Source of the DNA: a virus
Direction: 5' to 3' (one strand)
Length of the DNA stretch: 11,823 bases
Virus genome (UHGV): UHGV-1844342
This document shows, piece after piece, positions 1 to 10,760 of this stretch. The position numbers and the translations under genes are program-made. Numbering within the stretch: the first letter of the stretch is position 1; each line of letters opens with the position of its first letter. The notes under the pieces were generated by a model. The model saw only the letters and a program-made list of their open reading frames with translations. It did no database searches and was not told where the DNA came from.

Positions 1-16
1 GCCAGTGATGGGTTAA

Positions 17-490
17 GTGATAACAGGTGTCTGGAAATATAGGGGCAAATCCAGTTGGGTTTGGACTGTACCAAAAGATCACTCAAAAACTGGTGTTGAA
101 ATCGTCAGACCAGTACCTGAAATTCTACGACAGTGGGTAACGGATGTTCACGAAGAGACAAAACATACTGGTTATGTGCTGGGAAGTCTGCGAATTAGAG
201 AAAGCGTAAGCAAGATTGGGGGGAAAATCGGTAAACGTTTGGGCCATGAAAAACAATGGTCACTACACGACCTTAGAAGAACGCTATCTACTCATCTAAG
301 TGATCTCGGTGTTGAATTTTATGTAGTAGAACAACTGTTAGGCCATGCGCTACCTGGCGTGGCAGGTGTTTACAACCGGAGTAAGTTTATGGCTAAAAAA
401 CTGGATGCTCTGGAACTCTGGACTACATATCTCAATAGCATCGCAGGTGCTGATTCAAAAGTGACAATCCTCAAACAAAAGGTTGGTTAA
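17..490 (+). pseudogene. int: Tyrosine integrase (P4/CP4-57 type), C-terminal catalytic fragment only; 5'-truncated or frameshifted
   Basis: Translation has SKTG (conserved Lys region), HDLRRT (His-x-x-Arg), LLGH and GVYNRS (catalytic Tyr) motifs of tyrosine recombinases. In-frame TAA at 14-16 and stops in all three forward frames within the first 45 nt, so the N-terminal domain and box I Arg cannot be read through from upstream. Confidence 0.65.
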
Positions 491-491
491 C

Positions 492-719
492 ATGAAAAAA
501 ATGGCAATTGTTGATAAAAAGGGTCTGGAGTACATTCCTAACATTGACCGAATGATCCGTGAGAAAGAATGTCGGGAGCTAACCACTCTTGCGAACAGCA
601 CACGCTGGAAGCTGGAGAAGGAAGGAAAATTTCCTAAGCGGATCAAGATTGGTTCCACTGCTGTTGCATATCGTCTTTCAGAAGTGCAGGCATGGATTCG
701 AGGTGAGTGGGTAGTTTAA
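492..719 (+). CDS. alpA: AlpA/Vis-family prophage transcriptional regulator (winged HTH)
   Basis: 75-aa product; ...ELTTLANSTRWKLEKEGKFPKRIKIGSTAVAYRLSEVQAWI... fits the AlpA/Vis HTH pattern; sits directly after int as in Gram-negative PICIs; ATG 492 with AAGG 9 nt upstream (track start 483 is a TTG). Confidence 0.8.
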   Translation: MKKMAIVDKKGLEYIPNIDRMIREKECRELTTLANSTRWKLEKEGKFPKRIKIGSTAVAYRLSEVQAWIRGEWVV

Positions 720-744
720 ATTATCTCAGAATAAAATATTATGA

Positions 745-780
745 ATTACTGATTTGAGAATTTGTACTCAAATCAGTAAT
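745..780. terminator. Perfect 14-bp inverted repeat (ATTACTGATTTGAG / CTCAAATCAGTAAT) with 8-nt loop; candidate bidirectional intrinsic terminator between alpA and the convergent minus-strand cargo gene
   Basis: Arms 745-758 and 767-780 are exact reverse complements; AT-rich flanks on both sides; lies between convergent stop codons (719 and 789). Confidence 0.55.
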
Positions 781-788
781 AACATTCT

Positions 789-1325
789 TTATAAGAGATT
801 AAATCCAAATAAAGAGTAATCATATACCGGGGTGCATTGCATTCCACTGAATATGCTGATGTTTTTTTCTGTTTCTATCCTTTTTTCAATAAGTTGTTGT
901 ATATTTTTACAGTACAATTTGTGTGTGATGTTATTATCGTAAGCCTGATATAGCAACGTCAATGTTGACGCTAGGAAACATACAGATAAAATTAAAGTAA
1001 CATATGCGGTTTTTTTATTTTTTGTCCATGATCTATTTGTTTGTGAAATATAAAGAATTCTGATGTGGATAATGGTGAGAGACAATAGCAGGCCACTCAA
1101 TAAAATAAGTATTGGGTTTGCGTATTTTATTAATGGTTGAGAGCAAAAAACTATTATAGCTCCTGTGACTGCGTATGAGAAAAAGGAGTAATTAAACTTC
1201 TTACTCCTTCTCTCAAGTATTTTAATTTCATCTTGTGTGGGGGTTTTAGATGCCTCTAATATAAGTTTATTGAATGTTTCTGTTATCTTGTTTTTTGTGT
1301 TTGTGGCTATTTTTTTTAGATTCAT
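789..1325 (-). CDS. Hypothetical small membrane protein (about 3 predicted TM segments) in an AT-rich cargo island
   Basis: 178-aa ORF on the minus strand; GGAG about 12 nt upstream of ATG; hydrophobic stretches FFSYAVTGAIIVFCSQPLI, PILILLSGLLLSLTIIHIRILYI, AYVTLILSVCFLASTLTLLY; local GC far below the rest of the island. Confidence 0.55.
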   Translation of the reverse strand: MNLKKIATNTKNKITETFNKLILEASKTPTQDEIKILERRSKKFNYSFFSYAVTGAIIVFCSQPLIKYANPILILLSGLLLSLTIIHIRILYISQTNRSWTKNKKTAYVTLILSVCFLASTLTLLYQAYDNNITHKLYCKNIQQLIEKRIETEKNISIFSGMQCTPVYDYSLFGFNLL

Positions 1326-1639
1326 AGCATTCTAACTCCCTTAACTTATTTATTACTTTCTCTTTATGATAAGAGAGGGGAATGACTTGGTAAAGTGATT
1401 TGTCATTAATAATGATAATCCTTGCGATAAATATTTCTGCAAGTTATTTATCTGTTTGTTGCTATCTTGTTAAGCGTTGGGTGTGGTTTATGTTTGGAGC
1501 GACTTTATTTAATCGTGATTTTATGGATTTATATTTATATCCTGTAAGATAAGCGCATGTTAGTTCAGGAGTAGTGTCAGATAAAATTATTCGGAGTAGA
1601 ACTACCTTTTCTGTTTATTGCCAGTATTTACATAGCAAT

Positions 1640-1666
1640 GCGCCGTAGTTACTCACATCACGGCGC
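1640..1666 (-). terminator. Weak candidate hairpin (GCGCCGT ... ACGGCGC, 7-bp stem, 13-nt loop) just downstream of the minus-strand regulator gene
   Basis: Inverted repeat 1640-1646 / 1660-1666, 10 nt past the stop of the 1676-1978 gene; no clean U-tract. Confidence 0.25.
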
Positions 1667-1675
1667 TGATACTAA

Positions 1676-1978
1676 TTATTCAGATTCTTTGGCTTTACGC
1701 CGCTGGAGTTCTTCACGAGCGACGGCTACGAGTTGCCCGATTTCCTCCGCTGCCTTGATGCCGATTTGTTCGACCTTAGCTAAGGCATCCAGTGAAGACA
1801 CGAGGGGATTTTCTCCGCTTCCTTCTGCCTGGCGGCGGGCGATCTCACCGCGCATGGCGGTTACTATGAATCCGGCGTTGCTCTCGCCGTCCAGTTTTAC
1901 GGATTCCATGCCCTCCATAACATCGTGGGGAACCCTGATCGTTGTCATTTGCGATTTTGCATTTTTGTATACAGACAT
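1676..1978 (-). CDS. Putative ribbon-helix-helix (Arc/CopG-like) DNA-binding protein; candidate master repressor of the island, divergent from the early operon
   Basis: 100-aa ORF; N-terminal MTTIRVPHDVMEGMESV...NAGFIVTAMRGEIARRQ resembles a beta-strand/helix/helix RHH fold; divergently arranged relative to the operon starting at 2187 with an operator-repeat array in between. Confidence 0.45.
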   Translation of the reverse strand: MSVYKNAKSQMTTIRVPHDVMEGMESVKLDGESNAGFIVTAMRGEIARRQAEGSGENPLVSSLDALAKVEQIGIKAAEEIGQLVAVAREELQRRKAKESE

Positions 1979-1989
1979 AGTTAATCACC

Positions 1990-2110
1990 AATTTGTTATG
2001 TGTATATCACTATACACAAAAGTGATATATAAAAACACTTGCAATGTATATCACCACAATATAATGTATATCTCACATTATGGTCGCTATGTATCTCACA
2101 ATGATCGATT
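1990..2110. promoter_or_regulatory. Divergent promoter/operator region: four direct copies of TGTAT(A)TC(T)CAC(A) at 2001, 2045, 2065, 2090, one inverted copy (GTGATATA, 2022-2029), and a consensus -10 TATAAT (2060-2065) with TTGCAA (2039-2044) 15 bp upstream
   Basis: Repeats read directly from sequence; the -10 hexamer overlaps the repeats, consistent with a repressed early promoter. Confidence 0.6.
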
Positions 2111-2186
2111 CATAAAAACGACGAAACCCGGCAGTGCGCGAACACTAACCGGGCTTCTAACCAAACCGTTAAACGAGGTAACGATT

Positions 2187-2552
2187 ATGGCTGGAACACA
2201 GCATACCCAAACTCACCCTAAATTTATATACACCTTTCTGGCACTACACCACGACCGCATGGCAGATGGAGCAACTACGGTACATGTAGCCGCTGACACG
2301 CTGGTTGATGCCCGCAAGATGGTTAAGGAGATGGGCTATACTGCGGCTTTCTGGAAAGGGCGTGAAGAAAACACGCTGTTTATTCAGAAATGCGAAAACA
2401 ATTTCATCTGGCGTTTTATCGCCCTGAGTACGGCACAACCGCGCGTGATTCACATCGTGGCCACCAGCGAACAGGAAGCCCGCCAGCAATCCCCGGCTGG
2501 TTGCGTGAGGGTATTCGCCGCCCGTATTCGTCAGGAGGTATGCCGTGCTTAA
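2187..2552 (+). CDS. Hypothetical protein, first gene of the early operon
   Basis: ATG 2187 with GAGG 8 nt upstream; 121 aa; the track ORF 1638-2552 is the same frame, but its upstream part overlaps the operator region and the minus-strand regulator gene. Confidence 0.55.
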   Translation: MAGTQHTQTHPKFIYTFLALHHDRMADGATTVHVAADTLVDARKMVKEMGYTAAFWKGREENTLFIQKCENNFIWRFIALSTAQPRVIHIVATSEQEARQQSPAGCVRVFAARIRQEVCRA

Positions 2553-2730
2553 AACCTTCCGTGTATTTGCCCGAGCGGTTAACCCACGAGGCCACACAAT
2601 TGGTATCACTCAGAACGTGAAGGCTGTTAATGTTCAGACGGCTATTGCTGTGGTGAGAAGCGAATCATCAGAATATGGCTTATCACAAGTCATTATTTCA
2701 GCAGTGTATGAATTAAAAGAGGTGCATTAA
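2545..2730 (+). CDS. Hypothetical small protein (61 aa)
   Basis: GTG start 2545 with strong AGGAGG 6 nt upstream; overlaps the previous stop and the next start (TAATG at 2727-2732), i.e. translational coupling. Confidence 0.5.
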   Translation: MLKTFRVFARAVNPRGHTIGITQNVKAVNVQTAIAVVRSESSEYGLSQVIISAVYELKEVH

Positions 2731-2921
2731 TGCAGGAAATTACATTACACGAAGCCGCTGAACGTGCGCACCAGACAGAAATTATTTGCCGCCTTCTTGA
2801 GGTATACCCGAACAAAATTACAGATGCTGATATATCCGCACTGGCGAGCCTACTGGCGCGTCTTTCGGGAAGTGTCGCTAGTTTTTTGATTGAGGAAGAA
2901 AGTAAGCTGGTGGGGGATTAA
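2730..2921 (+). CDS. Hypothetical small protein (63 aa)
   Basis: ATG with AAGAGG upstream; stop followed immediately by the next start (TAAATG). Confidence 0.5.
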   Translation: MQEITLHEAAERAHQTEIICRLLEVYPNKITDADISALASLLARLSGSVASFLIEEESKLVGD

Positions 2922-3143
2922 ATGAATACAGAACGGGAAGTCTTTTTTAAATTGTTAGCATGTGCAGAAAGTTCATTAACTTTAAATAATTCAGCAAAAG
3001 CAATATTAAATATGTGGCTTGATTGCATAAATGACAATGAAGATGCAAATATTGCTTATGGCCTGTTGTCACTTATTGATGAAGCAGCAGAAAAACTCAA
3101 TGACGCAATAAATAGTGCCCTGTTATCAAATAAGTCGAGTTAA
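2922..3143 (+). CDS. Hypothetical small protein (73 aa), AT-rich moron-like gene inside the early operon
   Basis: ORF with GGGGGA upstream; base composition clearly lower in GC than flanking genes. Confidence 0.45.
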   Translation: MNTEREVFFKLLACAESSLTLNNSAKAILNMWLDCINDNEDANIAYGLLSLIDEAAEKLNDAINSALLSNKSS

Positions 3144-3160
3144 GTCGAGGAATAAATAAT

Positions 3161-3460
3161 ATGGAAATGAAAAATTCTGGCTTTATTGCCAGCGGCCCCG
3201 CTCGGCCTGAATTTATGAACGGCGATATTTACCGCGATAAATACGGCGGCACGGTAACGATTAAAGGCGTGGCAGAACGGCGCATCACTTACCGCCGTGA
3301 GGGGTATAGCTATGACTGCGTGATGCCTGTTTATCAGTTCCGGCGTGATTTTTCCCTGGTATATGCCGCACCTCGCAGTAAGCCCACCAGCAGGGAAAAA
3401 GCGCGGGGAAACATCCAGAAAATGAAAAGCATGATTAACGCATTCAGGGGCAAAAAATGA
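3161..3460 (+). CDS. Hypothetical protein (99 aa), translationally coupled to the replication gene
   Basis: GAGGAA upstream of ATG; stop overlaps the start of the downstream gene (ATGA at 3457-3460). Confidence 0.55.
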   Translation: MEMKNSGFIASGPARPEFMNGDIYRDKYGGTVTIKGVAERRITYRREGYSYDCVMPVYQFRRDFSLVYAAPRSKPTSREKARGNIQKMKSMINAFRGKK

Positions 3461-5208
3461 AACTGGCACCGAACTTAAAAAAACAGCCACGCGACAGACT
3501 GACAGAGGTAATCATCTTTGCAGGTAGTGATGCGTGGAGCCATGCGAAAGAGTGGCAGGAATGGGCGGGTAAACATATTGCCGCCGACGATGTGCCGCCT
3601 GTCGTGCTGGCTGATGAGCAACTGAAAAACATCATCGATTACCGGATCATTGATGAAGATCGTCAGTGTGTGCGTGTTTACCGCGCAGGACATATCACAG
3701 AGCACAGCATGACGCAGATTGTTACGTTACTGGCTGTGGCTGGAGTGAAGACCGTACACGAATACGCGGGGATTACTGACACCAGCCCCGTGGATTTATC
3801 CGACCAGTTGCCGCGACTCAAAGAGGAATGCGAGCGTGGGGAAAGTCTGGTGCTTAATCTTCCGACGAAGCAAAAGGCGCAACTTTCACAGATGGCAGAC
3901 AGTGAACGTGCACAACTACTTGCCGATCGCTTTGATGGTGTGTGTGTTCATGCAGAAAGTGAAATCGTCCACGTATGGCGCGGCGGGGTATGGTGTCCGG
4001 TCAGCACAATGGAGCTGAGCCGCGAAATGGTGGCGATCTATTCAGAGCACAGGGCCACGTTCAGCAAACGTGTAATCAATAACGCCGTGGAAGCGTTAAA
4101 AGTTATTGCCGACCCCATGGGGGAGCCGTCCGGTGATTTACTACCGTTCACTAATGGTGTGCTTAACCTGAAAACGGGGGATTTTTCTCCGCACTTACCG
4201 GAGCACTGGAGCACCACGCACAATGGCATTGAGTACACGCCACCAGTAGCAGGGGAAAACATCCGCGATAATGCGCCAAATTTCCATAAATGGCTTGAAC
4301 ATGCTGCAGGAAAAGACCCGCGCAAGATGATGCGTATATGTGCCGCGTTATACATGATTATGGCGAACCGCTACGACTGGCAGATGTTCATTGAGGCCAC
4401 CGGAGACGGGGGAAGCGGTAAGAGTACATTTACCCATATTGCCACCCTGCTTGCTGGCAAACAGAACACCGTAAGCGCAGAGATGACATCACTCGATGAT
4501 GCAGGAGGGCGCGCGCAGGTTGTCGGGAGTCGTCTTATCGTCCTTGCCGATCAGCTGAAATATACGGGGGAAGGCACGGGCATCAAGAAAATCACGGGAG
4601 GCGATCCCGTTGAAATTAACCCGAAATATGAGAAGCGATTCACGACGATAATAAGGGCGGTGGTACTGGCAACCAATAACGACCCGATGATCTTTACCGA
4701 ACGGGCCGGAGGTGTGTCACGCCGTCGGGTGATTTTCCGGTTCGACAACATTGTAAGGGAGGACGAAAAAGACAAGGAATTACCGGAAAAGATAGCGGCA
4801 GAAATCCCCGTAATTATCCGCCGCTTGCTGGCTAATTTTGCTGACCCTGAAAAGGCACGGGCTTTATTACTGGAACAGCGTGACGGTGATGAAGCTCTGG
4901 CAATAAAGCAGCAAACGGATCCGGTTGTTGAGCTTTGCGCGGCGCTGGAGTTTCTGGAGGAAGCTCGTGGGCTAATGATGGGCGGTGGTGGTGACACCGT
5001 GAAGTACACGACCAGAAACAGCCTTTACCGTGTCTATATGGCCTTCATGGCATATACAGGAAAGGGGAAATGTTTGAGCGTGAATGAGTTCGGAAAGGCT
5101 ATGAGGTCAGCGGCGAAAGTTTACGGATATGAATATATTACGCGAAAAGTTAAGGGAGTCACGCAGACCAACGCAACGACTACTGATGATTGCGATGCGT
5201 TTTTATAA
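3457..5208 (+). CDS. Replication protein: SF3 helicase with primase-associated N-terminal region (P4 alpha C-terminal / D5-like family; PICI pri-rep analogue)
   Basis: 583 aa; Walker A EATGDGGSGKST (about nt 4395-4430), Walker B-like RLIVLADQ (about 4531-4554), motif C-like VLATNND; iteron origin immediately downstream. Confidence 0.85.
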   Translation: MKLAPNLKKQPRDRLTEVIIFAGSDAWSHAKEWQEWAGKHIAADDVPPVVLADEQLKNIIDYRIIDEDRQCVRVYRAGHITEHSMTQIVTLLAVAGVKTVHEYAGITDTSPVDLSDQLPRLKEECERGESLVLNLPTKQKAQLSQMADSERAQLLADRFDGVCVHAESEIVHVWRGGVWCPVSTMELSREMVAIYSEHRATFSKRVINNAVEALKVIADPMGEPSGDLLPFTNGVLNLKTGDFSPHLPEHWSTTHNGIEYTPPVAGENIRDNAPNFHKWLEHAAGKDPRKMMRICAALYMIMANRYDWQMFIEATGDGGSGKSTFTHIATLLAGKQNTVSAEMTSLDDAGGRAQVVGSRLIVLADQLKYTGEGTGIKKITGGDPVEINPKYEKRFTTIIRAVVLATNNDPMIFTERAGGVSRRRVIFRFDNIVREDEKDKELPEKIAAEIPVIIRRLLANFADPEKARALLLEQRDGDEALAIKQQTDPVVELCAALEFLEEARGLMMGGGGDTVKYTTRNSLYRVYMAFMAYTGKGKCLSVNEFGKAMRSAAKVYGYEYITRKVKGVTQTNATTTDDCDAFL

Positions 5209-5220
5209 AAAATGGCAATG

Positions 5221-5455
5221 GTTATCTACCTTGTCTACCTGACTGAAATAAAATACTTTTATTTCAATGTATTAATGCAGGTAGATAACTATTTTTCACT
5301 GTCTACCTGTTATCTACCTTATCTACCCATTTTTGTAGACAGGTAAGGAGACGGGTAGAGATGAGGTAGACAGCTATTTGGGGCTGTCTACCTCCCTGAA
5401 ACCCGCGCCATTACTGGCCTGATAACTAATCAGGTAGACAAGGTAGACAAGGTGG
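5221..5455. repeat. Iteron-type replication origin: about 12 copies of GGTAGAC(A)/GTCTACC (with GGTAGATA variants) in both orientations flanking an AT-rich spacer (5241-5278)
   Basis: Copies at about 5223, 5233, 5280, 5301, 5312, 5321, 5335, 5353, 5365, 5385, 5433, 5442; tandem pair GGTAGACAAGGTAGACAAGG at 5433-5451; directly 3' of the helicase gene as in PICI/P4 ori. Confidence 0.8.
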
Positions 5456-5497
5456 TGGTGCACAAAAAACTTTTTAAACGAGGGGGTAAAAATAAAA

Positions 5498-5740
5498 ATG
5501 CACACATCAGGAAAACTGAACAAACATATAAAGCCACATTACCGCGCCCTTGATATGGCTGAACACTGGCTAAGGGTGGCGATTAAGGCAATAGACCGCA
5601 ACGCCGGGGAAGGATACGCGAAAGCACATCCCGAACTGATAAGCGCATTCATGACAACGGCGGCTGCAAACTTTGCCACGCTGACCGAACGGGAGATTGC
5701 CGAAGCGGAGGAAGTGACAACCATCAATATTAAGTCCTGA
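5498..5740 (+). CDS. Hypothetical protein (80 aa)
   Basis: ATG with GAGGGGG upstream; no overlapping conflict. Confidence 0.5.
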   Translation: MHTSGKLNKHIKPHYRALDMAEHWLRVAIKAIDRNAGEGYAKAHPELISAFMTTAAANFATLTEREIAEAEEVTTINIKS

Positions 5741-5751
5741 GAGCAGGCAGC

Positions 5752-6201
5752 ATGACGGCGCAAATAGCAGCTTACGGGCGGCTGGTGGACGACCCACAGG
5801 TAAAACATACCAGCAAGGGAACACCCATGACACTGGCACGGATGGCGGTATCTTTGCCATGCAGCCAGGCAGATGACGGAACGGCGACGATGTGGTTATC
5901 TGTGCTGGCGTTTGGCAGACAAGCCGACGCGCTGGCAAAGCATCACAAAGGCGAACTCCTGAGCGTGGCGGGTAATATGCAGGTGAGCCAGTGGAGCGGA
6001 CAGAACGGGGAAACGCGGCAGGGCTGGCAGGTTATCGCAGACAGCGTAATCAGTGCCAGAACGGTGCGACCGGGCGGCAAAAAAGGTCAACAGGGGCAGG
6101 CTACTGATGCACTGAACAGAGCAAAACAACAGGCAGATCAGCAAGGAAGCCATCCACCAGTGGGAGATAATGAGCAATGGGGAGATGATATTCCGTTTTA
6201 A
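5752..6201 (+). CDS. ssb: Single-stranded DNA-binding protein
   Basis: 149 aa; OB-fold-like N-terminal region, Gly/Gln-rich linker, and canonical acidic C-terminal tail ...GDDIPF. Confidence 0.8.
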   Translation: MTAQIAAYGRLVDDPQVKHTSKGTPMTLARMAVSLPCSQADDGTATMWLSVLAFGRQADALAKHHKGELLSVAGNMQVSQWSGQNGETRQGWQVIADSVISARTVRPGGKKGQQGQATDALNRAKQQADQQGSHPPVGDNEQWGDDIPF

Positions 6202-6219
6202 ATATTGCCAATAAAAAAG

Positions 6220-6243
6220 GCCGGAAAAAATATATTTTCCGGC
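6220..6243. terminator. Hairpin GCCGGAAAA / TTTTCCGGC (9-bp stem, 6-nt loop) between the replication and morphogenesis modules
   Basis: Exact inverted repeat 6220-6228 / 6235-6243; an A-run precedes it on + (so a T-run follows it on the minus strand); function as a module boundary is inferred. Confidence 0.35.
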
Positions 6244-6411
6244 ATGCTACATAAATCCCGACCAAAGGGAGTGAAGATATTAACACTAATTATCCGCGCT
6301 GAAGTTGTCATCCCAAAACTTTATACAACATTGCACTCGGTTGCATGTGTTAGCATGACAAATATCGGTGATAGCATATATCCACAATTATTTTTAATGA
6401 ATGTAAAGAGG

Positions 6412-7458
6412 ATGAGTATGGTTGATTTATATTCGCCTGCCCAGCTTGTGCAGGTGGCTAATGCAGAAGAGGTGCAAAAAAAATTAAATGCATTGTTTAC
6501 CAGTTTGTTTTTCACTCGCTCGGTAATGTTTGAATCAAGAGACATTATTCTTGATACAATCGACGATCCAAATATCCCAATTGCAGCGTTTTGTTCTCCT
6601 ATGGTGGGTAGTAAAGTTTCACGTGACGAAGGGTACGAATCAAAGACAATTCGTCCAGGCTATATGAAGCCGAAAAGCAGCATTGATCCAAATAAGTTAG
6701 CTGTGCGCCCTGCTGGTGTATCACCTGAGCAATACAATGCTTTTGGAGCGCGTAATATTAAAGTTAAACAGGCGATTGTAAATCAGGCTAAAGCTATTCG
6801 TGCACGTATTGAATGGCTTGCCGTTCAGGCAATCACAACGGGGAAAAATATCATTGAGGGCGATGGCATTGAACGCTATGAACTGGACTGGAATATAAAA
6901 CCACAAAATATTATCACGCAGTCCGGCGGTGCTGAGTGGTCAGGTAAGGATAAAGAAACTTTTGATCCAAATGATGATATTGAGAGCTACGCAGAATTTA
7001 GTGAGGGCGTCACTAATATCATCATTATGGGCGGTAATGTATGGAAGAAATACCGTTCATTCAGAGCGATAAAAGAGGCTCTGGATACCCGTCGTGGTTC
7101 TAATTCCGAACTGGAAACGGCCCTTAAAGACCTTGGTGATTCGGTGAGTTTTAAAGGGTATATGGGCGATGTTGCGATTGTTGTATACAGCGGGCGTTAT
7201 ACCGACGAGGACGGAACTGAAAAACATTTCCTTGATCCTGATTTGATGGTGCTTGGCAATACGGCTCTTCAGGGGATTGTCGCCTATGGCGGTATTCAGG
7301 ATCCGGAGCTAATCCGAATGGGGCTGACTAAAGCCGAACTTGCACCGAAAAACTATATTGTGCCTGGTGATCCGGCTATTGAATATGTGCAGACACATTC
7401 AGCACCACAGCCAATACCGGCCCGCATCAATCGTTTTGTTACCGTTCGCATTGGCTAA
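6412..7458 (+). CDS. Major capsid protein, divergent homolog of lambda gpE (HK97 fold)
   Basis: ATG 6412 preceded by AAGAGG; C-terminal about 200 aa align with the lambda E fragment present in this same window (shared blocks ITQSGG.EWS..DK.T.DP.DDIE.YA, DTRRGS.SELETA.KDLG, GDVAIVVYSG, MVLGNT), roughly 55-60 percent identity there by eye; N-terminal third far more divergent. Confidence 0.85.
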   Translation: MSMVDLYSPAQLVQVANAEEVQKKLNALFTSLFFTRSVMFESRDIILDTIDDPNIPIAAFCSPMVGSKVSRDEGYESKTIRPGYMKPKSSIDPNKLAVRPAGVSPEQYNAFGARNIKVKQAIVNQAKAIRARIEWLAVQAITTGKNIIEGDGIERYELDWNIKPQNIITQSGGAEWSGKDKETFDPNDDIESYAEFSEGVTNIIIMGGNVWKKYRSFRAIKEALDTRRGSNSELETALKDLGDSVSFKGYMGDVAIVVYSGRYTDEDGTEKHFLDPDLMVLGNTALQGIVAYGGIQDPELIRMGLTKAELAPKNYIVPGDPAIEYVQTHSAPQPIPARINRFVTVRIG

Positions 7459-7467
7459 GGGGGAGCA

Positions 7468-7809
7468 ATGGCTACTCATTACACTGAACTCATGGCTGGC
7501 ACTGAAGCACTGGTGACTACGCTGGGGATATTTTCAGCTAATAAAGGGGTAATTCCTGCATTTACGCCACTGATGCAGGAAGATGCAACAGGTGCACTGG
7601 TGGTATGGGATGGTTCGAGCGTAGGTAAAGCGGTTTATGTTTCCGCTGTACAAATCGACACCGCGAAAAAAACACAGGCTCAGGTCTATAAGACAGGTGT
7701 CTTAAATGTTGATGCTCTGAACTGGCCTGAGTCTGTAAAAGAACTGTCAGTAAAGATTGCAGCGTTTGTTGGCTCAGGTATTTCTGTTCAGCCGCTGGCT
7801 CGTGTGTAA
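7468..7809 (+). CDS. Head decoration protein, lambda gpD-like
   Basis: 113 aa; AAGGGGGAG RBS; blocks TPLMQEDATGALVVWDG, VYKTGVLNVDALNWPES and FVGSGISVQ resemble lambda gpD (TPLM..VAWDG, FYKSGTFRYEDVLWPEA, FAGTAISIV) as recalled. Confidence 0.7.
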   Translation: MATHYTELMAGTEALVTTLGIFSANKGVIPAFTPLMQEDATGALVVWDGSSVGKAVYVSAVQIDTAKKTQAQVYKTGVLNVDALNWPESVKELSVKIAAFVGSGISVQPLARV

Positions 7810-7820
7810 AGGGGGATACA

Positions 7821-8204
7821 ATGCAGAATCATTACAATGACCTTAAGCCAATTGCCGAAATGATGTATCCGGATCCAGCAGTAGAGGAATTAAAGGCTAT
7901 TGCTGACAAAATGCGTTTAAGCGAGCGTCTTGTTGATATGAATCAGGTGATGGAACTTACAACCCTGAGTCGTCGTACACTGCTAAACCTTGAAGCACGT
8001 GGAGAGTTCCCCGAACGCGTGCAGGTTACGGAAGGGCGTAAGGCCTGGTATTTAAGCGAAGTGATCGACTGGATAAACAATATTCCGCGCGCTTCTGAAT
8101 ATTGCCGCGTACCTGTCCCAAAAAAGCCAGATGCGGCGCTATGCCTCAAGATTGAGCGTGTACGCCGCAATGCGCGGGATGGTCGCTATAAGCTGATTGG
8201 TTGA
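7821..8204 (+). CDS. Second AlpA-family HTH protein with about 40-aa N-terminal extension; candidate late/packaging regulator
   Basis: 127 aa; AAGGGGGA RBS; core ELTTLSRRTLLNLEARGEFPERVQVTEGRKAWYLSEVIDWI matches the AlpA/Vis winged-HTH pattern. Confidence 0.7.
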   Translation: MQNHYNDLKPIAEMMYPDPAVEELKAIADKMRLSERLVDMNQVMELTTLSRRTLLNLEARGEFPERVQVTEGRKAWYLSEVIDWINNIPRASEYCRVPVPKKPDAALCLKIERVRRNARDGRYKLIG

Positions 8205-8219
8205 TGAAATTAGGGCCCG

Positions 8220-8300
8220 TTCTGGCTGGCGGGTCCTTTCCGGCGATCCAGAACGTTACGGGGCGGCGACCTCGCGGGTTTTCGCTATTTATGAGCATTT
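8220..8300 (+). other. cos: Lambda-type cos site: cosQ-like segment, cosN 12-nt cohesive-end sequence GGGCGGCGACCT (8261-8272), and proximal cosB segment
   Basis: 8223-8294 reads TGGCTGGCGGGTCCTTTCCGG.GATCC....GTTACG GGGCGGCGACCT CGCGGGTTTTCGCTATTTATGA, matching the joined right-end/left-end sequence of phage lambda as recalled; a Nu1-like gene follows as in lambda. Confidence 0.85.
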
Positions 8301-8405
8301 TTAGGGGACTGGTGGTGGTTTTGTTGTTCGCTATATCTGTATGAATAATAAGAGAAAAACACAATCAACACACCAACCTGAAACAGTAATTAAGTTGTGG
8401 TATCA

Positions 8406-8948
8406 ATGAAATTGCACCTGATGAACAAAAAAAACATGGCAAAAAGTTGCCGTGTAAGCGCCACTGCGTTCGATAAGTGGGGAGTGATTCCCGTCGAGCG
8501 TAAGGGCCGCGAGGCGTTTTATGATGTCGCCAGTGTAATAGATAATCGGGTTAACAATGCAATCAGCCAGATTACAAACGAAACGGGCGAGATTGATGAT
8601 GATGAACTCCTACGAGTCAGGATCAGATTGCTGACAGCACAGGCAGAGGCGCAGGAGCTTAAAAACGAGCGCGAACGCGGCGACGTTATTGATACAGCGT
8701 TTTGTATATACGTGCTTTCAAAACTGGCGAGTCAGATTTCTTCAATCATGGACAGCCTGCCGCTTGCCATGACAAGGAAGTTTCCCGACATGAAGCCGTC
8801 TATGCTGGATGGACTGAAAAAAGAAGTTATCAGAGCCTGTAACGCATGCGCAAAACTTGACGAAAACATACCGCTGATGCTGTCCGATTATCTGATGGAA
8901 ACTGCCGGAAACGTACCGGATAAGTTGCAGCTGAATAAAGATAAGTAA
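8406..8948 (+). CDS. Terminase small subunit, lambda Nu1-like (winged HTH N-terminus plus gpA-interaction C-terminus)
   Basis: C-terminal two-thirds aligns with recalled lambda Nu1 (LTAQAEAQELKNER...DTAFCIYVLSKLASQISSIMDSLPLAMTRKFPDM...KLDENIPLMLSDYL vs LTRAQADAQELKNARD...ETAFCTFVLSRIAGEIASILDGLPLSVQRRFPEL...ALDELIPGLLSEYI); N-terminus more divergent; start 8406 by analogy with lambda (8421 is an alternative; track start 8397 is GTG). Confidence 0.8.
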   Translation: MKLHLMNKKNMAKSCRVSATAFDKWGVIPVERKGREAFYDVASVIDNRVNNAISQITNETGEIDDDELLRVRIRLLTAQAEAQELKNERERGDVIDTAFCIYVLSKLASQISSIMDSLPLAMTRKFPDMKPSMLDGLKKEVIRACNACAKLDENIPLMLSDYLMETAGNVPDKLQLNKDK

Positions 8949-8959
8949 CGTAGTACGCT

Positions 8960-9241
8960 ATGACTGAATCCGAAATACTGCGATTAATCCGCCGTGCTTG
9001 TGGAATCAGCAAGCAGCATGACGAACAGGCCACGCAGCCGGACAGCGTGATCGCCGAAAATTACGCGCGTGTTGTTGCTGATGTGATGCGCCGTGATGGT
9101 ATTGAGCTTAACGGCGTGGATATGCGCGACATACGGATCAGATTCCTTGAGTTGCTGGCATACCGTCGCCGTTCTCAACAACGAAGGGAGAGCGCGAAAA
9201 ACACTTATCAGTGGAAGAAGCCGGAACGGTTGCGGCGGTAG
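8960..9241 (+). CDS. Hypothetical basic protein (93 aa) in the position occupied by the large terminase gene in lambda
   Basis: ORF directly downstream of the Nu1-like gene (12-nt gap); Arg-rich C-terminus; no obvious SD; no similarity to lambda gpA N-terminus that I can see. Confidence 0.45.
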   Translation: MTESEILRLIRRACGISKQHDEQATQPDSVIAENYARVVADVMRRDGIELNGVDMRDIRIRFLELLAYRRRSQQRRESAKNTYQWKKPERLRR

Positions 9242-9983
9242 ATTCCTGATATTCAGGAAAACCACGAATCCGGGGGTTTTACTGGCGCGGTGTACACGGT
9301 GGAACGTATAGCGTTACCTGACTTATTGCATTGTAAAAAGTTGAAAGGCACGGCCTGTAAGATGGGATGTTGTGAGTAGTTTAAAGCTACCCGCAAATTC
9401 TTTCGTTGTGCTGGCACAGGCGGTTAAACCGTCGGTAACTGGATAATCCCCACTGGGGGAAAAGCTGGCTACATCCCTCACATCTGAGGACTGATAACGC
9501 AAAATTGCGTTGGCTGGCAGAGTGCAAATTTGCACGATGGCCTAACCCATTGATTCTTTCGAAAACCCCCATTGGGGGAGAACGGGGGAATAAACCTGAC
9601 TCATTGATTTTTCCACAATCCTTAATTTGAGGAAGCTGGATAGTTGCACTACCCAAAAAGTGCAGTACCCACATAGCTGCTTAATAGCGTTTATTTTTTC
9701 CGCACACCTCAAATCTGAGAAGGCCGGAATGATGACATGGCAGGATTATGATTCCTTGATTTCAAGGAGTCCTCCAGTGTGAAAATGAAATTATCTGGGC
9801 TGGTGGGTGAGTTGCTGATCTGCAACTCGGCTATGAAACTTAATAATCGAACAGCATGTAAATTCATTTCTGTGTATTGCAGCATGTATTGCAACATAGT
9901 CATTCTGGTAGAGATTATGCTCTATTTTTCCTCTTATATCATTCACATACTTACGTCATTGACTCATGTAGCCGAAGCATGAG

Positions 9984-10760
9984 GTGAATCCGCAGATGAC
10001 CCTGCGTCGCCTGCCGGATGAAGATCCGCAGAATCTGGCGGACCCGGCTTACCGCCGCCGTCGCATCATTATGCAGAACATGCGTGACGAAGAGCTGGCC
10101 ATTGCCCAGGTCGAAGAGATGCAGGCAGTTTCTGCCGTGCTTAAGGGCAAATACACCATGACCGGTGAAGCTTTCGATCCGGTTGAGGTGGATATGGGCC
10201 GCAGTGCGGCCAACAACATCACGCAGTCCGGCGGCACGGAGTGGAGCAAGCGTGACAAGTCCACGTATGACCCGACCGACGATATCGAAGCCTACGCGCT
10301 GAACGCCAGCGGAGTGGTGAATATCATCGTGTTTGATCCGAAAGGCTGGGCGCTGTTCCGTTCCTTCAAAGCCGTCAAGGAGAAGCTGGATACTCGTCGC
10401 GGCTCTCATTCCGAGCTGGAGACAGCGGTGAAAGACCTGGGCAAAGCGGTGTCCTACAAGGGGATGTATGGCGATGTGGCCATCGTCGTGTATTCCGGAC
10501 AGTACGTGGAAAACGGCGTCAAAAAGAACTTCCTGCCGGACAACACGATGGTGCTGGGGAACACTCAGGCACGCGGTCTGCGCACCTATGGCTGCATTCA
10601 GGATGCGGACGCACAGCGCGAAGGCATTAACGCCTCTGCCCGTTACCCGAAAAACTGGGTGACCACCGGCGATCCGGCGCGTGAGTTCACCATGATTCAG
10701 TCAGCACCGCTGATGCTGCTGGCTGATCCTGATGAGTTCGTGTCTGTACAACTGGCGTAA
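9984..10760 (+). pseudogene. E: Major capsid protein gpE, 5'-truncated fragment (C-terminal about 258 codons), near-identical to lambda E
   Basis: Translation NPQMTLRRLPDEDPQNLADPAYRRRRIIMQNMRDEELAIAQ...EFVSVQLA matches lambda gpE from about residue 85 to the end as recalled; in-frame TAG at 9969-9971 and non-lambda AT-rich sequence upstream; the track start is a GTG that is internal in lambda. Confidence 0.85.

Follow-up and report, generated by a model that had tools for sequence, protein, structure and literature searches.

The non-coding tail of a capsid-splitting phage satellite of Escherichia coli: an attachment-site arm preceded by a mosaic of palindromic cassettes related to Bro-network genes

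Introduction

Helper-embedded phage-inducible chromosomal islands (HE-PICIs; PICI, phage-inducible chromosomal island) are a class of satellites described by Tommasini, Mageeney and Williams in 2023, with 201 instances at the site E:Phage_cap_E:80 (PMC10111431). In the attP of these elements, copies of the motif tgTGTATTGCantgTGTATTGCa lie at 81 ± 2 bp on the upstream side and at 132 ± 2 bp on the downstream side of the centre; the doubled motif itself is unlike an integration host factor (IHF) site, and the identity block 'agccgaagca' is given in the supplement for many E_Phage_cap_E_80 HE-PICIs (PMC10111431). The same account gives no description of the ~600 bp that separate the P arm from the last of the late genes. 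Here we analyse positions 9242-9965 of a stretch of Escherichia coli DNA of 11,823 nt (virus genome UHGV-1844342; hereafter the window). This interval is the non-coding right-hand tail of an HE-PICI that lies within the lambda-E-type capsid gene of a lambdoid prophage, at codon ~80 and in the same orientation as that gene.

The inducing signal of Gram-negative PICIs was described as unidentified in 2018, and experiments have placed PICI origins just past the 3' end of the primase gene. Swapping of segments is known among Bro-network genes, as is DNA exchange between PICIs and prophages. Other systems offer partial parallels. Roi of phage HK022 reportedly binds a site within its own gene, close to an IHF site, and IHF is reported to stabilise the binding (Clerget and Boccard, 1996). 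P4-like phage satellites are said to carry accessory and defence hotspots, reportedly described by Rousset et al. in 2022. In bacterial interspersed mosaic elements (BIMEs) and RIP-type elements, an IHF site is flanked by REP (repetitive extragenic) palindromes.

Results and discussion

The gene-free right end of a satellite that splits a capsid gene

Positions 9100-10100, used as a genome query, were 99-100% identical to five complete genomes. In the annotation of one of them (NZ_CP070066, locus L001), prophage genes for portal, S49 protease and decoration protein lead to a major capsid gene marked 'missing C-terminus'. The satellite then reads tyrosine integrase, helix-turn-helix (HTH) protein, Icd-like protein, D5-type primase, single-stranded DNA-binding protein (SSB), major capsid protein, decoration protein, second HTH protein, small terminase and a 93-aa hypothetical protein (orf93), and after ~730 bp without features come a major capsid gene 'missing N-terminus', FI, and head-tail and tail genes. 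No gene is annotated by RefSeq between orf93 and the capsid fragment in any of the five genomes. Pfam and PHROG scans of the open reading frames (ORFs) of the window gave the same layout, with int, an AlpA-type HTH gene, a D5-type primase, SSB, a lambda-E-type capsid, a D-type decoration protein, a second AlpA-like HTH gene and a Nu1-type small terminase (TerS).

In HE-PICIs, a tyrosine integrase and an AlpA-type excisionase are followed by Bro, replication and late zones, and the gene order here agrees with this. Homology to lambda E restarts at window position 9970, equivalent to lambda 6370 and codon ~79 of E. The C-terminal part of the interrupted gene (9972-10760, plus strand) is 98-100% identical to lambda-like E genes, its N-terminal part lies at L001 2036-2281, and both halves run in the direction of int and the primase gene, as in the published HE-PICIs at this site. 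The annotation of L001, the scans of the window and the lambda E homology from 9970 onwards together identify the interval as the gene-free right end of a capsid-splitting satellite. Since the satellite carries no replacement sequence, integration splits the capsid gene. The surrounding prophage is defective and DLP12-like. An earlier note, made from the letters of the window alone, had placed a non-coding stretch between a satellite and a prophage fragment, which the annotation of L001 bears out. It had not recognised that this fragment is the other half of the capsid gene split by the satellite, that cos and the replication origin lie elsewhere, or that the palindromes are homologous to Bro-network genes. 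As a whole, the interval is best explained as an HE-PICI tail composed of an attachment-site arm, a mosaic and cassettes that would act as DNA, and we give this reading a probability of roughly 0.55.

An arm of the attachment site occupies the last 130 bp

The window shares with L011 (NZ_CP143092), a sister HE-PICI at the capsid-E site, only positions 9840-9969, at 89% identity. On this ground, we delimited the P arm of the satellite attP, as present in attR, to 9840-9969 (plus strand); it is specific to HE-PICIs at the capsid-E site. It holds a doubled arm motif, tgTGTATTGCagcaTGTATTGCa (9871-9893, plus strand), which matches the published tgTGTATTGCantgTGTATTGCa and is a candidate arm-type site for the integrase or AlpA. 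The TGTATTGCA repeat units, at 9873-9880 and 9885-9892 in the window, recur beside int at L001 2409-2416 and 2421-2428. The doubled TGTATTGC motif at 9871-9893 ends 81.5 bp from the core centre, and its partner (L001 2407-2429, same strand) starts 132 bp downstream of the core centre on the int side; distances and co-orientation are as published. The repeat TGTATTGCAGCA/TGTATTGCAACA seen here by the earlier note (9873-9896, repeat family D10) is thus the HE-PICI attP arm motif.

Comparison of attL and attR yielded a 10-bp crossover identity block, AGCCGAAGCA, with its attR copy at 9970-9979 (plus strand) and its attL copy at L001 2271-2280. This block is the published agccgaagca 10-mer. An attR/attP core had been suspected within the interval; the arm is indeed inside, and the core falls five bases outside. 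The partner repeat looked for upstream of int, beyond the start of the window, turned out to be the AGCCGAAGCA copy in the N-terminal capsid-gene fragment. Joined in silico at the core, the outer flanks give the in-frame capsid sequence GGATATGTCAAGCCGAAGCATGAGGTG, and the joined attL-left and attR-right flanks (GGATATGTCAAGCCGAAGCATGAGGTGAATCCG) are likewise in frame. From what is known of its family, the tyrosine integrase, probably with AlpA, would assemble on the arm sites and excise the satellite; excision would rejoin the capsid halves at AGCCGAAGCA into an in-frame capsid gene, as the in-silico join predicts.

The attachment part of this element is already published, the present satellite being another instance, and it confirms the HE-PICI architecture in which the satellite splits the helper capsid gene and restores it on excision. 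Insertion site, orientation, identity block, motif spacing and the integrase/AlpA/primase layout are the same as at E:Phage_cap_E:80, with no difference in the attachment part (PMC10111431). The window satellite has its own Nu1-type terS, whereas the HE-PICI prototype 11capE is without one (PMC10111431). There is also a likeness to the lambda attP intasome in the short core, the repeated arm motifs at fixed distances on both arms, the tyrosine integrase and an IHF consensus within the int-side arm. However, the sequence and geometry of the arm motif differ from those of lambda, the directionality factor is of the AlpA type, binding of Int to the motif is a candidate assignment, and the target of the satellite is a phage late gene. 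The IHF consensus in question, TAATCTTTTGATA (read on the other strand), is exact and lies at L001 2329-2341, with the core on one side and the doubled motif on the other.

A mosaic of dyad-bearing cassettes precedes the arm

The first ~600 bp of the tail form a mosaic of short dyad-bearing cassettes common to E. coli PICIs with different integrases, and several of them share homology with short stretches from inside Bro-network genes (KilA-N, ant and roi). The block from about 9242 to 9610 is 85-97% identical to satellites at thiM, yejO and clpS and inside a lambda-type portal gene, and pieces of the tail recur in PICIs at fis and tRNA-Ile, one of which has a full HK97-type head module. Since it is present in PICIs at such different sites, the tail block is independent of integrase type and late-gene content. 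Scans of viral and metagenome sequences added ~25 loci, giving ~12 distinct tail variants in all. In a cross-species scan with a single exact 20-nt tail anchor against one genome per species, the only match among the species representatives (L012 3968-3987, a metagenome-assembled genome labelled Verrucomicrobia) had no flanking similarity and is due to chance.

In the sister HE-PICI L011, an abortive-infection (Abi) gene on the minus strand (L011 5210-5971) replaces the rest of the tail. Positions 9242-9840 thus occupy an accessory slot, one that behaves as a defence or accessory hotspot. The hotspots of P4-like satellites are likewise variable slots beside the att site at the end of the element; the slot of the window satellite, in contrast, holds no gene, only cassettes and filler.

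Palindromes are clustered in the tail, as the earlier note had proposed. Counting perfect inverted repeats with a stem of at least 5 and a loop of 3-6, we found 12 matches (9 distinct sites) in 9242-9969, compared with 3.2 ± 2.0 in 1000 dinucleotide-preserving shuffles, none of which reached 12; short palindromes are thus about four times commoner in the tail than in shuffled sequence. Per tile, there were 9-12 inverted repeats over the interval, 0-5 over the coding part of the satellite (1-9100) and 4-8 over the downstream lambda E fragment. All four motifs listed in that note are present in the sequence. The inverted repeat AACGCAAAATTGCGTT exists at 9496-9511, shifted by 1 nt from the 9497-9512 given, and the palindrome GTGCAAATTTGCAC (9522-9535) and the pair TCCCCACTGGGGGA (9447-9460) and CCCCCATTGGGGG(AG) (9566-9580), 119 nt apart (repeat family D2), lie where they had been placed.

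At the left end, directly 3' of the orf93 stop codon, is a hairpin with a 7-bp stem (TTCCTGA-TAT-TCAGGAA, 9243-9259) without a T-tract, which was not called by the terminator scan. It overlaps a KilA-N patch (9255-9313, plus strand) that includes the dyad AAAACC..GGTTTT and matches, at 88% identity, part of the interior of a prophage KilA-N gene (blastn 53/60 against L007 2001-2060, inside the KilA-N coding sequence 1844-2341, sense). The patch is frameshifted here and deleted in L005-type islands. An ant patch with a GTAG..CTAC hairpin follows at 9367-9403 (coding sense on the minus strand) and is 95% identical to a piece of the ant gene of VT2-Sakai (L006); blastn gave 35/37 and 27/33 against L006 2255-2290 and 2225-2257, antisense, the counterpart being tandemly duplicated within the VT2-Sakai gene.

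To the right of these patches, 9400-9545 has no phage match and holds both perfect palindromes. The dyad TCCCCACTGGGGGA has the L003 counterpart TCCCCCTATTGGGGGA at the same position, and the dyad CCTCACATCTGAGG (9476-9489) forms an invariant flank in the alignment of related islands. AACGCAAAATTGCGTT and GTGCAAATTTGCAC, joined by the linker GGCTGGCAG, make up a two-palindrome module (9496-9535) that is 94-96% identical to unrelated small integrative elements beside PerC genes. In L004, its second palindrome shows a compensatory change from G-C to T-A. Neither palindrome has a further copy elsewhere in the window or the satellite. A degenerate second copy of the module, common to PICIs at fis and tRNA-Ile, occupies 9783-9840 (direct repeat D6, inverted repeat I10) with the hairpin GAGTTGCTGATCTGCAACTC at 9809-9828. 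Between the roi-like cassettes described below and this copy lies lineage-specific filler (9640-9800), which starts with the tandem 16-mers TGCACTACCCAAAAAG and TGCAGTACCCACATAG (9645-9676, repeat family D5) and is present in 5/5426 E. coli genomes, the five near-identical ones only.

One of the related loci, L010 (NZ_CP148430), is a small circular record of 12,152 bp labelled 'plasmid', with genes for a tyrosine integrase, a TOPRIM/DUF927 primase, PerC and a truncated phage ejection protein. In appearance, it is less a plasmid than an integrative element that has been excised. The strain from which it comes also carries the thiM-site satellite L002, and L010 has the palindrome module and one roi-like cassette in common with the tail.

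Tandem cassettes resemble an intragenic module of roi

Two tandem 54-bp units, cassette 1 (9541-9594) and, in 54-nt register with it, cassette 2 (9595-9648), each comprise a minus-strand IHF consensus, a 10-bp linker and a 13-bp dyad. The IHF consensus of cassette 1, AATCAATGGGTTA (9543-9555, minus strand), is the sole exact match to WATCAANNNNTTR in the 11.8-kb window, and its dyad is CCCCCATTGGGGG (9566-9578); cassette 2 has an IHF-like site with one mismatch (9597-9609) and the dyad CCTTAATTTGAGG (9620-9632). The patches 9541-9579 and 9591-9642 are 87-88% identical to roi/KilAC genes, antisense: 34/39 positions of cassette 1 are identical to roi of VT2-Sakai (L006 1501-1539) and 46/52 of cassette 2 to the KilAC/roi gene of L008 (2001-2052).

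HK022 roi has the same layout, CTGCATTGCAG and then AATCAATGATTTAGG, at the same codons. In roi, the homologous DNA codes for residues ~38-65, which are hypervariable and have conserved sequence on either side. The dyad is palindromic in three allele classes, as CCTCAAATTGAGG (PQIE), CCCCAATGGTGG (PPMV) and CTGCATTGCAG (PALQ, HK022), and is followed by an IHF consensus in each; the 80 loci kept from a sampling of roi in IMG/VR were all at least 95% identical to the query, and are sub-variants of one allele class. Because dyad and IHF consensus are kept at fixed codons across the allele classes, roi genes appear to bear a cis-acting element embedded in their coding sequence.

The ant gene of VT2-Sakai (L006 2225-2290) contains a hairpin-bearing tandem duplication of ~30 nt, coding for LRVALNYSQN and LRVTLSNSQN, whose stems differ by compensatory changes (GTTAC..GTAAC versus GTAG..CTAC). 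It is a second case of a palindrome kept within the coding sequence of a Bro-network gene.

We aligned, without gaps, 14 cassettes (8 from satellites, 6 from phages or other elements) that had been collected with a filter of at least 4/5 paired positions, and compared them with 500 shuffles. All 14 have the 10-bp linker followed by CCnnnAWTnnnGG, and none has lost the IHF core or the 10-bp spacing. Paired cells made up 91% of the alignment, compared with 71% in shuffles and 27-57% in slid registers, and the covariation score was 0.475 versus 0.143 in shuffles (0/500 reached it). The two outer pairs of the dyad are near-constant C-G without any double-sided change, and the three inner pairs (3/5) change on both sides. 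Most satellite dyads are perfect or have one G-T pair although their flanks no longer code; in L003, each cassette has one mismatched dyad position.

Satellites carry 2-4 tandem cassettes, phage roi genes one. The satellite in a lambda-type portal gene at L005 4143-4948 (NZ_CP053234) and related ones have tails with three. Each of the eight satellite cassettes has a better match in a roi allele of a phage or element than among the other cassettes of its array. In the window, unit 1 is identical to VT2-Sakai roi at 36/44 positions and to unit 2 at 28/44, and unit 2 to a PQIE-type roi at 39/44.

Like the HK022 roi region, the tail module has an IHF consensus ~10-12 bp from a short dyad, the distance being fixed; it differs in lying outside any gene and in forming 2-4 tandem copies, each like a different allele. 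Since no gene covers the cassettes and neither the satellite nor the surrounding prophage has a roi or Rha gene, they resemble the Roi/IHF intragenic module without being a strict member of it. BIMEs and RIP-type elements are likewise repeated non-coding combinations of short palindromes and an IHF consensus, but the tail has no REP consensus, its dyads vary while the linker is conserved, and its cassettes occur only in PICIs, in small integrative elements and inside roi genes of phages, not in the intergenic DNA of chromosomes. The cassette array and its relation to roi appear undescribed in the literature searched.

A possible binding array, or inherited remnants

In the reading that we favour for the cassettes, they would act as DNA, as IHF-bent binding sites for Roi/Rha-type dimers of lambdoid phages that serve as a sensor or a sink. 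From the homology and covariation described above, we hold this tentatively, at somewhat less than even odds. IHF would bend the DNA 10 bp from the 13-bp dyad CCnnnAWTnnnGG in each 54-bp cassette, and a Roi/Rha-type dimer would bind the dyad beside the bend. Because neighbouring cassettes copy different roi alleles, we propose that the tail may be a multi-specificity array for Roi-family proteins of resident or incoming lambdoid phages, either sensing or sequestering them. After excision, the array would lie ~500-600 bp upstream of int-alpA in the circular satellite. More speculatively, and with considerable doubt, PICI tails might constitute a tandem operator 'library' copied from different roi alleles that detects or titrates Roi/Rha-family (Bro-network) proteins of an active lambdoid phage. 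Such a library would be a DNA-level device for helper sensing or an anti-phage decoy, and could bear on the activator of Gram-negative PICIs. That the palindromes might be sites for a dimeric regulator had been among the suggestions of the earlier note; it is the option preferred here for the palindromes, on the strength of roi-module homology and dyad covariation.

The main rival is that the palindromes are idle. The tail beyond the att arm would then consist of decaying fragments of Bro-network genes (KilA-N, ant and roi) in an accessory slot, left by recombination with lambdoid phages and by slippage duplications, with inherited palindromes. We consider this possible and on balance unlikely. 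It fits the mixed orientation of the patches, which match coding parts in sense (KilA-N) or antisense (ant and roi), and the ~20 nt longer roi homology in L010, as expected of a trimmed gene fragment. A minus-strand frame across the cassettes is still open, the sister L011 has its Abi gene instead of most of the tail, 9640-9800 is restricted to five genomes, there is no roi gene in the satellite or its defective DLP12-like prophage, and both segment swapping among Bro-network genes and PICI-prophage exchange are precedented. However, a decaying gene leaves a single copy of each segment, whereas here the same 18-codon segment is found 2-4 times in tandem, each copy like a different allele. The dyads are mostly perfect beside former coding sequence that has diverged, every cassette keeps its IHF core and the 10-bp spacing, and the block 9330-9590 is conserved at 85-97% across PICIs with different integrases and late modules.

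Several points weigh against a binding array. The adjacency of Roi and IHF inside roi is a reported one, and the mapped site is equated with the dyad by assumption. For a helix-turn-helix dimer, a dyad of 13 bp is short. There is no roi gene in the surrounding defective DLP12-like prophage and no other match to the interval in that chromosome, so that no cognate binder is present in cis. As L011 has an Abi gene in place of most of it, the tail is dispensable for the satellite life cycle. Covariation of the palindromes could be a legacy of functional phage alleles, acquired by recombination and without function in the satellite. With ~12 distinct tail variants, the conservation statistics are weak, and the pairing filter used in collecting cassettes also counts here; dropping it adds only modules of other types.

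Satellites with different integrases and packaging modules retain a dyad block including IHF-plus-dyad cassettes otherwise seen only in the hypervariable part of roi. If these are binding sites, they offer a concrete handle on how Gram-negative PICIs sense or interfere with lambdoid phages.

Coding, RNA, packaging and replication signals

A structured RNA could also account for clustered palindromes. The tail would in that case be the 3' untranslated region of the satellite late operon or of a helper late transcript, with stabilising or processing hairpins, or an antisense RNA against roi and ant mRNAs. Antirepressor genes are classically under antisense RNA control, as by P22 sar and P1 c4. 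Transcription of the satellite late genes and late transcription of the helper both read the plus strand, which is antisense to the roi and ant patches. In folding of 9242-9660, both strands were more stable than shuffles, the plus strand (z = -3.44) more so than the minus strand (z = -2.04), and the dyads show compensatory changes. Palindromes, however, stabilise folding on both strands whatever their function, and G-U-type changes show no strand preference (for AACGCRAMATTGCGYT, one is tolerated on the plus strand only and one on the minus strand only). The KilA-N patch is in sense orientation. In L010, the cassette block is inverted relative to the direction of the genes, which is why we favour a role as DNA over a strand-specific RNA.

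The covariance-model scan proposed in the earlier note, which had considered a small RNA, found no Rfam family in the whole window at gathering score; at a permissive threshold (E <= 10), 9150-10050 gave only eukaryotic or viral chance matches with E >= 0.18. Known structured RNAs, including the C4/IsrK immunity RNAs of satellites, were rejected as candidates for lack of such a match. No tRNA or tmRNA was found, a scan of the tail for sigma-70 promoters and intrinsic terminators gave no signal above shuffles, and there was no Rho-type C-rich bias, GC skew being at or above zero across the tail. A literature search for non-coding RNA or IHF in EcCIMP1 found nothing. We regard an RNA function as improbable.

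The longest ORF in the interval, on the minus strand at 9387-9674 (95 aa), might instead be a real gene for tandem Roi hypervariable peptides. In the window, L002 and L005, the frame runs open through the cassettes, and its repeats, when translated, are similar to Roi residues 38-58. An open frame is to be expected in any case of units that derive from coding sequence and have a length divisible by three. The ORF has no PHROG match and is unannotated in the RefSeq genomes inspected. Indels of 1, 2, 14 and 41 nt between related islands break the frame, among them an insertion of 2 nt (L003) and a deletion of 1 nt (L005) that shift its C-terminal part. A protein-coding gene in the tail was rejected for want of in-frame conservation or a family match, in agreement with the earlier impression that the stretch holds no convincing ORF, and this very improbable explanation is effectively excluded.

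So is the least probable one, that the palindromes are terminase (cosB) or initiator sites of a packaging site or replication origin. The region follows terS, dyads of the type TCCnnn...nnnGGA recall the iterons of lambda ori, and an IHF site is typical of cosB. No cosN occurs in 9242-9969, however. The exact lambda cosN, GGGCGGCGACCT, occurs once in the window, at 8261-8272, directly upstream of the Nu1-type terS, and the flanks of this cos (8229-8308) match lambdoid cos regions, including the annotated terminase and IHF sites of phage 21. The expected replication origin is at 5221-5449: immediately past the 3' end of the primase gene, the position of the mapped PICI origins, iterons of the types GGTAGACA and TGTCTACC in either orientation surround an AT-rich stretch. 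Replacement of the tail by the Abi gene in the sister element likewise speaks against both. Accordingly, cos and ori were rejected as functions of the interval.

Other features of the satellite

The satellite cos has lambdoid cosQ/cosN flanks and a sequence that diverges toward terS (8397-8948), which suggests that its cosB is specific to the satellite and recognised by the small terminase that the satellite itself encodes. Phage_integrase was detected at window 17-490 by the Pfam/PHROG scan. Of the two AlpA-family HTH genes, one follows int (483-719, same scan) and the other, of 127 aa, lies in the late zone (7821-8204), directly upstream of cos. The last gene of the late operon, orf93 (8960-9241, plus strand), forms the left boundary of the non-coding tail and belongs to phrog_1561, a family of unknown function (E = 1e-53). 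It has no Pfam or PDB match and is labelled 'hypothetical protein' across all related islands; an RppA-like packaging redirector was considered for it and rejected, as there was no PDB sequence match.

At 6205-7809, the satellite has genes of its own for a lambda-E-type major capsid protein (Pfam Phage_cap_E) and a D-type decoration protein (HDPD), while its insertion interrupts prophage E. Before excision, the capsid shell could be provided, or replaced, by their products. An IS66 element splits the primase gene of the satellite in strain FDAARGOS_1296 (L001 7686-10274; also L041), and the DLP12-like prophage there has an internal stop in its portal gene and a frameshift in its tape-measure gene; the helper/satellite pair in this strain is probably defunct.

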